NCBI GenBank assembly: GCA_005191425.1
Contig: SUPR01000113.1
Location: 1-9,862, forward strand
Reading direction: 5' to 3'
Source of the DNA: Candidatus Helarchaeota ASGARD archaeon Hel_GB_B
GTDB taxonomy: Archaea; Asgardarchaeota; Lokiarchaeia; Helarchaeales; HEL-GB-B
Length of the DNA stretch: 9,862 nucleotides
Below are positions 5,100-9,694 of this stretch, in pieces. The translations under genes and the position numbers were made by a program. Position 1 is the first letter of the stretch. Each line of letters begins with the position of its first letter. The notes below the pieces were generated by a model. That model made no database searches. It saw nothing but the letters and a program-made list of their open reading frames with translations, and was not told the origin of the DNA.

Positions 5100-7244
5100 T
5101 TAGCTACCAATCATAGATGCTAATCTTTCCATACCTTTTGCTTTTTCTTCAAGTTCTTTAGCACGCTCAGTTTCTCCTAATTCTTGACTCAGTTTAGCTG
5201 CATCGGCAAATGATTGTGCTGCAATTGCATAATTGCCTTTAGCCATTGCATTTTCTCCTCTTTTTACTAAGTCTTTTCTAAATCGTACCATCTTAAACCT
5301 AGGTAATGCTTTAAAAGTCAATAAACTTTGGACAGCTGTCCGAACTGAATCTACAAAATCGCGGTCTCGATTATATTGAGCATTAATTATTTCTTTAGAA
5401 AATTCGAACCTTTTTACATTATAGCTAATTTTAATTAAATTTTGTATGATTTCCTCTAGATTTAAGTCGATACCATCAATATCCTTTTTTGATTCAGCCA
5501 TTTGTTCTAATGCTTTTTCACCAAGTGCACCAGCAGCCTTAGAAATTGGTAAAGTTGATATTACTAATTTTTTACCTTGAATACCATAATCCCCAATTAA
5601 ATTAATAATAGCTTGACGCACAATGCTATCAAAAGTTATTTGTTGTCTGAATTGAACAGCTTTAATTCTTTCAGTAAACTCTTTTCTTTTTACATTATAA
5701 GAAACATCAACAAGAGAAGATATAGTAAAACCAAGTGAATCTAATTCTGCTCTAGAATCTCGGAAATGTTCAATAACTTCATCACCAGGTAATTTAGCCG
5801 AATCAGCTATTGGGCCTAGTCGGTCAAACACTCTTCTGGTACTTTCGTCATAATCAAGTATTAATTGAGTTATTGCCATTCGGACTAATTGATCAAATTT
5901 GTCATGAGATTCTTTAATAGCATTTTCAGCATTGATTGCAAATTCTGTTTTTTTAATGGAATAAGATGTATCTATCAAAGTTGCCATTACAGATTTATAA
6001 AGTTCATCAATAGCTTCTAATTCACTTTTTCCCTCTTCAAATTGTTCTCGAGTCGATTCTCCAGGTAATACTGCAGATTTTGCGGCACTGTCCAATCGTC
6101 TAAACAGCTGACCTACCTTAAAAGAATATTCCTCTTCTAAATTCTTTACTATAGACCTAACAGTTTCGTCAAAAATATTTTTTGCTATTTGACTGAATTC
6201 AGAAAATCTATCTTCATATCTCTTGATATAGTCAAGTTTTTCTTTATAATTAAGTTTATTATAAAAATCAATTATGCCATCAAATCGTTCTTGTTGTTTT
6301 ATGATCCAATTTTTAGCTTCTCGAACAGTATCAATGATTTCTTTCGATTTATCAAGTGGATAAAGTCTAACTTTTGAAGCTTCTCTCACAACCTTTGCTT
6401 CTTTCAATTGTTTAAGGATCATTTTAATTGAAGGTTGAAGAGAAACGATCATACCACAACGGACATTGTCTATTTTAGCTCTTGGTTCTCTTGAAATAAT
6501 ATCATCTAATACTGACCTTACTTCCTTGAATTTTCTTGTTGCATAATCGGGATTTCCTCGCGTAATTGAAGCCAGACCAGTTGAGTAATTTGAAACTGCA
6601 TTTGCCAGCGCCTTTTTTATTTTAAACCGAGTATAACCGGCTTCTACAGCTTCATTGGCTATATCTGCAGCTTTATTAAAATTTCGAGCTGCTTGGTCAT
6701 ATAATTTGGTTGCTTCAGTATTCTTGGTCGCGCGCCTTGCTTGAATAGTATGGAATGTTCCTAGATGTAGCAATGCTTTAAAATTATTAGTATAATAAAT
6801 ATCTCTAGAATTTGCACCTTCCTCTAATGTCATAGGAAGGGGTAAACAATAATTTTTAGCTAATATTGCAATTTTATTGAATTTTTGCACTAATTCCAGC
6901 ATCTTTCGCGCACTTATACCATATTTTTCAATTGGAGTCGCTACAATAGCATGTTTTTCTATTTCTACTTCTTCCGGCTCTAATTCTTTCATCATTTCAA
7001 TTAGTTTAGATTCTCTTTCCTGTAATGTCGCTAAACGCTGGTTTTGGTCTTCAATAAAATCAATACTTGGTACTTTACCAAAAACATCTGTTGCAATTTT
7101 CTCTAGAAATCTTTGTGATTCTGTAAATGTATTTTCAGTCCCACATTGTAGACACCTCAATGTCACTCCTTCAATTAATTCCGGGATCTCATTTAAACAT
7201 CTTGTACATGGTAACCGTAGCCAAGTTGGTTTCCTTGCCGTCAT
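5100..7244 (-). CDS. Large uncharacterised alpha-helical protein: N-terminal Zn ribbon, TPR/SNAP-like helices, three ~92-aa tandem repeats, C-terminal TPR-like unit
   Basis: 714-aa ORF with a GAGGAG SD and CxxC-x14-CxxC at aa 13-34. It contains TPR-like segments LYDQAARNFNKAA and GNYAIAAQSFADAAKL. An internal repeat can be aligned by eye. Confidence 0.9.
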   Translation of the reverse strand: MTARKPTWLRLPCTRCLNEIPELIEGVTLRCLQCGTENTFTESQRFLEKIATDVFGKVPSIDFIEDQNQRLATLQERESKLIEMMKELEPEEVEIEKHAIVATPIEKYGISARKMLELVQKFNKIAILAKNYCLPLPMTLEEGANSRDIYYTNNFKALLHLGTFHTIQARRATKNTEATKLYDQAARNFNKAADIANEAVEAGYTRFKIKKALANAVSNYSTGLASITRGNPDYATRKFKEVRSVLDDIISREPRAKIDNVRCGMIVSLQPSIKMILKQLKEAKVVREASKVRLYPLDKSKEIIDTVREAKNWIIKQQERFDGIIDFYNKLNYKEKLDYIKRYEDRFSEFSQIAKNIFDETVRSIVKNLEEEYSFKVGQLFRRLDSAAKSAVLPGESTREQFEEGKSELEAIDELYKSVMATLIDTSYSIKKTEFAINAENAIKESHDKFDQLVRMAITQLILDYDESTRRVFDRLGPIADSAKLPGDEVIEHFRDSRAELDSLGFTISSLVDVSYNVKRKEFTERIKAVQFRQQITFDSIVRQAIINLIGDYGIQGKKLVISTLPISKAAGALGEKALEQMAESKKDIDGIDLNLEEIIQNLIKISYNVKRFEFSKEIINAQYNRDRDFVDSVRTAVQSLLTFKALPRFKMVRFRKDLVKRGENAMAKGNYAIAAQSFADAAKLSQELGETERAKELEEKAKGMERLASMIGS
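5313..6173 (-). repeat. Protein-level tandem repeat (92/88/92 aa plus the start of a fourth unit) in the 714-aa ORF
   Basis: Units begin at F358, F450, F538 and F630: FDETVRSIVKNLEEEY / FDQLVRMAITQLILDY / FDSIVRQAIINLIGDY / FVDSVRTAVQSLL. Each unit has a (P/L)G turn and the motif SY(S/N)(I/V)K(K/R)xEF. Confidence 0.85.
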
Positions 7245-7548: not shown

Positions 7549-7941
7549 TTATAATTTAGACCTTAATTCATCTGCTAAATCTTTTGCTTCCTTACCTGCT
7601 CTTTTGATTTTGATTGATGGCCCGCGTCCAGTTATTTTCCGTTCGATTAATACTAATTGTTGGTAAGTTAAACGCTCTTTTAAGATTCCATTGCCAACAA
7701 GTAATTGTATTACCTCTTCAATTAAATTACTTACTCTAATATCCCGTTTTCGTATTTCTCCAAAATATTGATACGCGTCTGGTTGCATCCAAGTTATCAA
7801 TAACCTCTCACGCGGATTATTTTGCATCTTTTCTTCTAATTCTTCCATTTTCCTTTTTTGTTCTTCCAACTTTTTCCGTTCTAATGCTCTACGTTGCAAC
7901 TCCAATAACTTTTTTCTCTTTATTTTTTCTAAATCGTCCAT
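7549..7941 (-). CDS. PDCD5-like (dsDNA-binding / TFAR19 family) protein
   Basis: N-terminal MDDLEKIKRKKLLELQ and a Gln/Glu/Lys helix, then LL..WMQPDAY...I, IEEVIQLLVGNGILKERLT..QL..I and a basic IKIKR. This follows the archaeal PDCD5 pattern (LEAIRRKRLAELQ ... ILTPEA ... LIQLAQSG...KIT.EQL). Confidence 0.75.
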   Translation of the reverse strand: MDDLEKIKRKKLLELQRRALERKKLEEQKRKMEELEEKMQNNPRERLLITWMQPDAYQYFGEIRKRDIRVSNLIEEVIQLLVGNGILKERLTYQQLVLIERKITGRGPSIKIKRAGKEAKDLADELRSKL

Positions 7942-8784: not shown

Positions 8785-9096
8785 TCAAGTCTTTATTATT
8801 TGATTTGTACTTGGATTTATTTCAAGTAATATATCATTATTTGAATCATCAATTAGATAATCACCGTTTGGTAATGGGTCAATATCGCATATCCATTTCA
8901 TAATGCCGCGCCCTTTAGGATATGCATATTGCCAAATAATATTACCCGAACGGTTAATTTGAATACATCGAAAATTCTCTGAATCAGCTATTAGATAAGT
9001 TTCTGAATTATTTAAATAACATGTTCCGTGTTGATGATTCATTAAAGAATGGTCACCGGGTTTTCCTGCATGCCAAACGATCTTTTTACTTGCGTT
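8785..9096 (-). pseudogene. ASST-like gene, middle fragment
   Basis: NASKKIVWHAG...HQH...LIADSEN...DIDPLPNGDYLIDDSNN continues the propeller pattern. The track's ATG at 9117 (MRCHITQ) is an artefact of the shifted frame. Confidence 0.7.
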
Positions 9097-9694
9097 TTGC
9101 GTTATATGACACCTCAATAATCATATCAAAATTACGCAAACTTACTGAAATTATAGGACAATAGACACCAGGTAAATTGCTATTATTAATGAATTGGATT
9201 TCATTAATATGTGTCCAACATCCATGGGCTGGTTTTTGGTTTAATACATATTCTCTGGCATTAGAATTTTTACCCCAACCCCATTGATCCGCATAATCAG
9301 ACCAATTAAATTGAGTCATATTATGAAAATCTAACTCCCAAACAATTTTTTTATTTGTGATATTTACCTCTATTACTCGGTCATTTACTGTATCGGAGAT
9401 CAATATATTTCCATTTGGTAGAATATCAGAATCATGAATAAATATTATACCTCTTTTATCCCCGGAATATTCCCAATCAATTTGTCTCTTAGTTATATTC
9501 CATATTGCAACTCTATTATATTCTGAAATTAATAGATCACCTTTATATTTACCATTATTTATATAATCTACATCTGAATTTGGTACAACCTTTACAAATG
9601 ACGGGACTACAAAATTACTTATGATAAAGACAATTATAAACCCACAAACAAAAAGAATGGCCATATTCTTATATAATTTCATAATTAAACTCAA
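9086..9694 (-). pseudogene. ASST-like gene, N-terminal fragment (signal anchor plus first propeller blades)
   Basis: Hydrophobic N-terminal segment MAILFVCGFIIVFIISNFVV followed by propeller motifs. It ends 3 codons after the frameshifting duplication. Confidence 0.7.
9090..9103. repeat. Exact 7-bp tandem duplication TTGCGTT-TTGCGTT (AACGCAA x2 on the coding strand)
   Basis: Read directly at 9090-9096 and 9097-9103. It coincides with the frameshift between the two ASST-like ORFs. Confidence 0.9.

Follow-up and report, generated by a model that had tools for sequence, protein, structure and literature searches.

An undescribed Asgard archaeal repeat family with a predicted spectrin-like rod architecture

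Introduction

Rods assembled from three-helix bundles are familiar from eukaryotes, where spectrin, alpha-actinin, plakins, and nesprins are all built in this way. Among prokaryotes, the described three-helix-bundle rod known to us is bacterial EzrA. [quoted passage not shown] A gene of Candidatus Helarchaeota archaeon Hel_GB_B raises the question of whether these archaea also possess rods of this type. The gene, referred to here as the rod gene, lies on contig SUPR01000113.1, and the stretch that we analyzed, hereafter the window, is this entire 9.86-kb contig (9,862 nucleotides), which belongs to a genome of 3.5 Mb and 94% completeness. An earlier note on the DNA, made from its letters and open reading frames (ORFs) alone, drew attention to positions 5313 to 6173 of the minus strand, which encode residues 358 to 644 of a 714-residue protein. 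There it described a tandem helical repeat of about 92 residues that might form a rod.

Our analysis points to an undescribed Asgard repeat family whose predicted architecture is the one known from spectrin-type rods. The protein lacks a transmembrane segment (the maximum Kyte-Doolittle mean over 19 residues is 0.83), and scans of Pfam and NCBIfam, including Pfam scans of 18 family members taken singly, returned no match to an enzyme family. It is probably a non-enzymatic soluble scaffold that is specific to one Asgard branch. We identified 32 homologs, of which the full-length ones span 712 to 744 residues. The close homologs carry the names Candidatus Helarchaeota, Lokiarchaeota, or Promethearchaeota archaeon, in keeping with the Asgard host that had been guessed from the sequence.

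An ancient threefold repeat

We confirm that the protein contains an ancient threefold repeat with a fixed copy number. The three tandem units lie at the boundaries originally claimed for them (Table 1), as is evident both from alignment scores and from a hidden Markov model (HMM) of the unit, derived from the repeats in 18 family members. When units were aligned with one another, local BLOSUM62 scores ranged from 108 to 128, compared to 25 to 27 ± 5 for plain shuffles (z 18 to 23). Because amphipathic helices can look alike trivially, a second control permuted residues only within the hydrophobic and polar classes, which preserves the helical pattern. These shuffles scored 29 to 31 ± 6 to 7.5, and the real pairs stood above them at z 12.8 to 15.5, so the concern that the repeat might be indistinguishable from a shuffled coiled coil does not hold. 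No other 90-residue helical window of the protein scored above 31 against a unit, and the flanking windows (residues 266 to 357 and 630 to 714) scored at chance level. Identity between the three units is 29 to 33%. The unit HMM recovered exactly three units in the 714-residue protein and in each full-length ortholog, and among 1.84 billion representative proteins a profile search returned none with more than three.

The finer description of the unit was also accurate. The motifs that had been read from a single protein (FD...VR.AI..L..DY, a PG turn, and an SYxVKRxEF turn) agree with the family and unit alignments, and the four-residue deletion attributed to unit 2 is visible in the unit alignments of three orthologs. 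Unit 2 is shorter than the other two in every full-length ortholog, by about 4 to 8 residues, and its modeled helix 488-514 has 27 residues versus 31 in units 1 and 3. The suggested start of a fourth unit was recovered with a position-specific scoring matrix (PSSM) of the first 16 unit positions, which placed residue 630, exactly 92 residues past 538, best outside the training units. The score at this residue (1.7 versus a background of -33 ± 10) is not significant alone. The site ranked fourth or fifth in four of the five other orthologs scanned; in the remaining one it was absent from the five sites listed. Within the partial unit, F630, D632, R635, A637, L641, L642, and F644 are invariant in the family alignment.

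No tandem repeat is left in the gene at the DNA level, and the duplication is therefore old. In a maximum-likelihood tree, units cluster by position across both groups of orthologs, with support of 97/93 for the clade of third units, while the single unit of a paralogous family described below forms the outgroup (100/99). Because the grouping is by position, the triplication predates the split between the ortholog groups, which are about 40% identical.

Table 1. Features of the rod gene and its 714-residue product (all on the minus strand; positions are those of the window)
Feature	Residues	Window positions	Strand	Description and basis
Rod gene	1-714	5100..7244	minus	714-aa soluble, all-helical protein with N-terminal zinc ribbon; ORF list and translation
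C4 zinc ribbon	8-39	7128..7223	minus	Invariant C13, C16, C31, C34; short beta strands in model
Helical head	40-272	6429..7127	minus	TPR-like solenoid of about 7 helices; ends in loop 253-272
Cryptic "bundle 0" (predicted)	273-357	6174..6428	minus	Helices 273-294, 297-331, and first part of 338-389
Repeat unit 1	358-449 (92 aa)	5898..6173	minus	Unit HMM, independent E value (i-E) 3e-35
Repeat unit 2	450-537 (88 aa)	5634..5897	minus	Unit HMM i-E 2e-36; 4-residue deletion in middle helix
Repeat unit 3	538-629 (92 aa)	5358..5633	minus	Unit HMM i-E 3e-35
Partial fourth unit	630-648	5301..5357	minus	First-helix motif (F..VR.A...L) recurs; PSSM scan
C-terminal three-helix TPR/MIT-like module	649-714	5103..5300	minus	Structural superposition

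A predicted rod of three-helix bundles

The stacked helical-bundle rod that the repeat had suggested is predicted with high confidence by AlphaFold2 (AF2). Run on the family alignment, AF2 modeled the full-length protein as all-helical with a predicted local distance difference test score (pLDDT) of 86.6. In an independent run, the rod modeled alone reached a pLDDT of 88.4 and a predicted template modeling score (pTM) of 0.69, with helix boundaries nearly identical to those of the full-length run. The modeled helices alternate between long and short (residues 338-389, 396-426, 432-481, 488-514, 524-569, 576-606, and 612-645), and the last of them is uninterrupted in both models. In these models the PG and SYxVKRxEF motifs occupy the two turns, and the FD motif falls in the middle of a long helix.

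Three-helix bundles, including ribosome recycling factor domain I and designed bundles, fit residues ~357 to 462 with a root mean square deviation (rmsd) of 1.7 to 2.8 over 97 to 100 residues. In an exhaustive structural alignment they also fit residues 544 to 643, with an rmsd of 2.0 to 2.3 over 98 to 100 residues. From these single-bundle superpositions, the predicted structural repeat is best described as an antiparallel three-helix bundle. The two-helix unit of the earlier note was imprecise in this respect: bundle and sequence unit are out of phase, since the latter starts midway along a ~50-residue helix that is common to two bundles. The partial fourth unit would then complete the last helix of bundle 3. 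At the other end, a fourth three-helix bundle ("bundle 0") is predicted at the N terminus of the rod; no similarity between its sequence and the repeat units could be detected.

Taken together, the models show four antiparallel three-helix bundles that follow one another from about residue 273 to 645 in a straight rod, and the last three of these would be the tandem repeat. Each unit would run from its first helix through the PG turn, the second helix, and the SYxVKRxEF turn into the start of the next long helix. Adjacent bundles would share one continuous helix of ~50 residues, as they do in spectrin-family rods, and since the helices are shared a stiff rod is to be expected. Judging from helix lengths at 1.5 Å per residue, it would be roughly 15 to 19 nm long.

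When long amphipathic helices are predicted as monomers, the result can be a collapse into bundles, and many spectrin-like rods dimerize. It could thus be argued that the predicted rod is a modeling artifact and that each long helix instead pairs with one from another chain in a dimeric or filamentous coiled coil. We regard this as improbable. In every unit of every ortholog, the conserved PG and SY turns coincide exactly with the predicted reversals of the helices, and pLDDT remains at 85 to 95 through the flanks of the turns. The pTM of the isolated rod argues in the same direction. Furthermore, an alternation of helices of 50, 30, and 50 residues suits bundles that fold back on themselves better than a long in-register coiled coil.

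Searches of structure databases gave a more mixed picture. A comparison by AlphaFold and Foldseek, as had been proposed, upheld the helical-bundle rod as a prediction, but the best Foldseek matches were designed proteins: with the rod as the query, E values below 0.01 were reached by designed repeat proteins only, and natural matches had E values of at least 0.08. With the full-length model, Foldseek returned just unspecific large solenoids with template modeling (TM) scores of about 0.1. A search of the ESM Atlas with features of the rod yielded no usable match, and by shape TM scores reached 0.46 at most.

Family, distribution, and relation to spectrin

The earlier reader did not recognize the unit as belonging to a named family, and our searches bear this out. 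Neither Pfam nor NCBIfam contained anything above chance for the 714-residue protein, and the same was true of Pfam for the 18 members scanned singly. When all PDB sequences were searched with profiles, both of the whole family and of the rod, the matches were at chance level except for a weak one between the zinc ribbon and those of ribosomal protein eS27 (E 0.06). A full-text literature search for Asgard together with spectrin found no paper on such a protein. The repeat family is undescribed, and its predicted architecture is spectrin-like.

The profile search of representative proteins mentioned above returned 48 proteins, which comprise the orthologs, a paralogous family, three small proteins bearing the unit, and a set that shares the C-terminal module alone. 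Outside the orthologs and paralogs, the unit was found in only those three proteins and one 46-residue fragment (P0080). One of the three has a zinc ribbon and two units (P0056), and the other two carry about 1.5 units each (P0057 and P0058). The paralogs (P0037, P0041, P0043, P0048, P0050, and P0054) are Asgard proteins of 635 to 722 residues. They resemble the 714-residue protein in the zinc ribbon, the head, and the first unit, and the full-length profile matches them over query positions 9 to 473 (E 2e-48 to 6e-17). They differ in having a single unit that is detectable by sequence and, by eye, an apparently beta-rich, possibly Ig-like C terminus, with a weak match to Transglut_C, in place of units 2 and 3 and the TPR/MIT-like tail. 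An acidic tail follows this apparent domain in two of the three paralog sequences that we read. The paralogs keep the SY-turn motif immediately before the beta-rich domain. A paralog and an ortholog co-occur in one assembly (P0025 and P0083).

The rod gene is a core gene of the order to which the window belongs and is patchy in the sister order. The protein is present in all seven genomes of the window's order. Among 301 genomes sampled evenly across the phylum, full-length orthologs occur in only four, and the N terminus of the paralog occurs in four further genomes of one genus. In a 4.4-Mb genome from the same class, which forms a single contig, the only match was a weak one to the tail module.

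Given this predicted topology, it is reasonable to ask whether the family is related to spectrin by descent. It is the topology of the rods of spectrin, alpha-actinin, plectin and other plakins, and nesprin (PF00435), where antiparallel three-helix bundles stand in tandem and each bundle's last helix extends into the following one. These rods are also the best natural structural matches over two and three repeats. Plectin SR5-6 superposed with an rmsd of 3.9 over 162 residues, alpha-spectrin R15-16 with 5.3 over 183, and alpha-actinin with 6.3 over 217, while beta2-spectrin R14-16 aligned over 253 residues. Shared topology and the frequency of spectrin-family rods among natural multirepeat matches would both be expected if the family truly belonged to the spectrin-repeat superfamily and its units were far-diverged homologs of the repeats of eukaryotic spectrin and alpha-actinin. 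Nevertheless, we find such homology highly unlikely. A spectrin repeat has about 106 residues and a conserved tryptophan in its first helix, whereas the unit described here has 92 residues and no tryptophan. The unit also has motifs of its own, namely FD at the bundle junction, the PG turn, and the SYxVKRxEF turn. No match to PF00435 was obtained at an E value of 10 or less for the 714-residue protein or 1 or less for the 18 members, and PF24531 appeared in one of the 18 at chance level (E 0.082). Moreover, the protein is predicted to have only three bundles (plus one cryptic), and in place of actin-binding CH domains and EF hands it carries a zinc ribbon with a TPR-like head and, at the other end, a TPR/MIT-like tail. 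Its host is archaeal, and the family is limited to a narrow branch of the Asgard archaea.

Rods of three-helix bundles have evolved repeatedly, as in bacterial EzrA (PMC4243239) and the Sey1p stalk. EzrA, a spectrin-like regulator of cytokinesis in Firmicutes, contains "unusual" triple-helical bundles in linear repeats (PMC4243239). It resembles the 714-residue protein as a prokaryotic rod that has been likened to spectrin without sequence similarity and as a scaffold rather than an enzyme. Unlike our protein, which has other end domains and no transmembrane segment, it is anchored in the membrane at its N terminus, and its five bundles are arranged as an arch. EzrA was not matched in the Pfam scans and is not among the fold-search matches listed, so any relation to it is by analogy only. 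Given the narrow range of the family and the lack of any sign of spectrin homology, we argue for convergence and not for a family ancestral to the eukaryotic proteins. What is of interest is thus Asgard cell biology, together with a tentative ESCRT lead discussed below, rather than in eukaryogenesis as such.

Rods of another type occur in vesicle-tethering complexes, and the protein could be a CATCHR-type or other tether of the exocyst, GARP, COG, or Munc13-like kind. This seems very improbable. Structural matches to such proteins were weaker and shorter than those to spectrin-type rods, CATCHR rods lack an internal sequence repeat, and a match to COG4_N falls on the TPR-like tail and not on the rod. 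There are no other tether subunits nearby.

End modules and proposed role

The ends of the protein differ from the rod in both predicted fold and conservation. The closest folds to the head are SRP68 and Bro1 domains, and a search of the ESM Atlas by features gave TPR-like leads only (0.79 to 0.82). Between the ortholog groups, identity is 0.66 in the zinc ribbon, 0.67 in the head loop at residues 56 to 66, and 0.66 in the loop at residues 253 to 272, compared to 0.32 to 0.40 in the rod units and 0.40 overall. The second of these loops (window 6429-6488, minus strand; motif REPRAKID..R.GM.V.L.PS) is among the best-conserved parts of the family yet is the worst-modeled part of the protein, with pLDDT below 50. 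It may serve as a hinge or as a site of interaction.

The tail superposes on TPR-type modules as well as on MIT domains. Matches to six MIT domains were obtained, four of them with an rmsd of 1.3 to 1.6 over 59 to 66 residues, while the MIT domains of yeast Vps4 and USP8 fit at 2.4 to 3.2. In 9 of 18 members, the tail has a subthreshold match to the Pfam model TPR_2; the best E value is 0.0011, and the 714-residue protein scores 14.9 bits versus a cutoff of 27 bits. Five to nine copies of the same module, which is ~55 to 60 residues long, are present in other Asgard proteins. Two of these from other assemblies (P0040 and P0047, ~790 to 924 residues) have seven or eight copies, and their N-terminal arrays have a period of ~75 residues. 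By eye, P0040 has a hydrophobic, probably membrane-spanning stretch; P0047 has a weak match to SCP2. Copies of the module are also borne by a 927-residue ORF of the source genome itself (G000:C112:13723-14541, minus strand).

From this anatomy, in which a C4 zinc ribbon and a TPR-like head would be followed by the rod and then by a small three-helix TPR/MIT-like tail, we favor a non-enzymatic scaffold. The rod would act as a spacer or adaptor of fixed length, keeping a binding site on the head and a peptide-binding module in the tail a set distance apart. A spacer or adaptor is the most likely function because the rod is the least conserved part of the protein and the zinc ribbon and two head loops are the most conserved. 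Considering further that its length is fixed, that its gene is a core gene of one order, and that its end modules are of a protein-binding type, the protein is a candidate organizing scaffold in Asgard cells. We hold this view with moderate confidence, since the role is one that we infer and the fold is predicted.

An argument can be made against this interpretation on several grounds. The fold was predicted from a shallow alignment of 18 to 19 sequences from two clades, and the structures that match it at the top ranks are designed helical repeat proteins rather than rods found in nature. The head and tail are potential binding modules, which is to say putative ones. In addition, the genes next to the rod gene are housekeeping genes and offer no functional cue. 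The more specific proposal of the earlier note, a cytoskeletal or membrane-tethering scaffold, gained no direct support, as the protein has neither a transmembrane segment nor an informative operon partner.

An ALIX-like ESCRT adaptor as an alternative

The resemblance of the head to Bro1 and of the tail to MIT domains raises an alternative to a spacer of this general kind. The protein may be an ESCRT adaptor similar to ALIX/Bro1, in which a Bro1-like head, a rod replacing the V domain, and an MIT-like tail would allow both ends to engage the tails of ESCRT-III proteins, the MIT-like end by way of a MIM helix. Its order of head, rod, and tail and the sizes of these domains do recall Bro1 followed by a V domain, and the close fit of four MIT domains to the tail would be explained. 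The source genome also has a full ESCRT cluster, in which two ESCRT-III genes end in MIM1-like helices. If true, this reading would place a Bro1/ALIX-like regulator in Lokiarchaeia and Helarchaeales, where two surveys report none (PMC10936438 and PMC10307638). One of them did not find a Bro1/Alix ortholog in Asgard archaea (PMC10936438), and the other noted weak Bro1-domain matches in other Asgard lineages (PMC10307638, supplement). The 714-residue protein family is not described in either survey.

We judge an ALIX-like role unlikely, though not negligibly so. What speaks for it is structural resemblance throughout, at scores no better than noise. Among 18 family members, there was no Pfam match to BRO1, MIT, or the ALIX V domain at an E value of 1 or less. 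A scan of the whole source genome with the MIT model (PF04212) at E ≤ 0.1 hit nine places, none of them on the contig of the rod gene, and a scan with PF03097 (Bro1) at E ≤ 0.01 found no match. When the family was aligned by hhalign with an Asgard ORF that has a subthreshold BRO1 match, the probability was 0.6%. The recurrence of the tail module in arrays of five to nine copies is the behavior of a TPR rather than of an MIT domain. In terms of structure, the head is ~150 residues short of a full Bro1 domain, and the protein has an added zinc ribbon and MIT-like tail. The V domain of ALIX has two arms that the chain crosses three times, unlike the linear tandem seen here. The rod gene, which is on another contig, is neither in nor near the ESCRT cluster. 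A complex prediction of the tail (residues 538 to 714) with the C-terminal 46 residues of the Snf7-like ESCRT-III protein from the source genome, run without controls, gave an interface score (ipSAE) of 0.00 in both runs and counts neither for nor against this role.

The ESCRT cluster of the source genome (L038; G000:C128:44000-60000) comprises two ESCRT-III genes, Vps4, Vps25-like and Vps28-like genes, a UEV-Vps23 fusion, and an ORF that we named Vps22-like by eye. A gene for a 923-residue HerA/DUF87-type ATPase lies between the two ESCRT-III genes. Other Asgard genomes encode TPR proteins of ~408 residues (L029 1453-2679, minus strand; L037 604-1827, plus strand) that are unrelated in sequence to the 714-residue protein. 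The first of these scored 32.4 bits against the BRO1 model of Pfam, just under the cutoff of 35.1 (profile positions 138 to 310), and its homolog at the second locus reached only 18.8 bits in a genome scan.

Gene neighborhood

The rod gene appears to be monocistronic and is flanked by AT-rich intergenic gaps of 304 bp upstream and 531 bp downstream. S-adenosylmethionine synthetase adjoins it in six of seven loci and is the downstream neighbor in the window and most others. The spacing varies: one gene intervenes in one case, and in another the synthetase is on the opposite strand. Likewise, the paralog gene lies downstream of a Glu/Gln-tRNA synthetase gene at two loci (L017 6001-7908 and L018 6001-8079; P0054 and P0083). 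We interpret both adjacencies as retained synteny with housekeeping genes. Given this, and the variable spacing and strand, we rejected the gene neighborhood as a cue to function.

The far end of the window contains two genes of potential interest for the ubiquitin system. At 60-503 lies a gene for a JAB/MPN (JAMM) protease (Pfam JAB, E 4.5e-21) and at 1396-1905 one for a ubiquitin-conjugating E2 (UQ_con, E 1.5e-26), both on the plus strand. They are 0.9 kb apart, with an ORF of 129 residues and no family between them on the other strand. In a genome of the same genus (G305, locus L079), ORFs match the JAB-E2 pair as judged by size and order. These genes, 3 to 7 kb from the rod gene on the same contig, and the unannotated ORFs of the same order and size in G305 would fit a scaffold of an archaeal ubiquitin-like modification system, whose zinc ribbon or head recruits E2, ubiquitin, or the JAMM protease. 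We consider this scenario quite unlikely, because JAB and E2 genes were absent near the orthologs at the inspected loci of more distant genomes and because the zinc ribbon has four ligands versus the eight of a RING. A scaffold whose rod serves as a spacer or adaptor is still the reading that we prefer.

No RNA run carrying this DNA was among the public runs listed, while at least 0.87 of its DNA words were found in four metagenome runs from hydrothermal vents or marine sediment, which represent four studies. Directly upstream of the rod gene is a PDCD5/TFAR19-like gene (dsDNA_bind, 24.4 bits versus a cutoff of 26 bits; window 7549-7941, minus strand), and at another locus (L002) a dsDNA_bind gene occurs about 3 kb from the ortholog in inverted orientation. 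Two overlapping ORFs of 110 and 202 residues at window 8785-9694 (minus strand) are seemingly a single arylsulfotransferase-like (ASST) beta-propeller gene that has been split by a frameshift. Last, at two loci (L002 7303-7857 and L078 7779-8264, both on the minus strand), the strand opposite the rod gene bears a small free-standing LAGLIDADG-like ORF immediately upstream of it.

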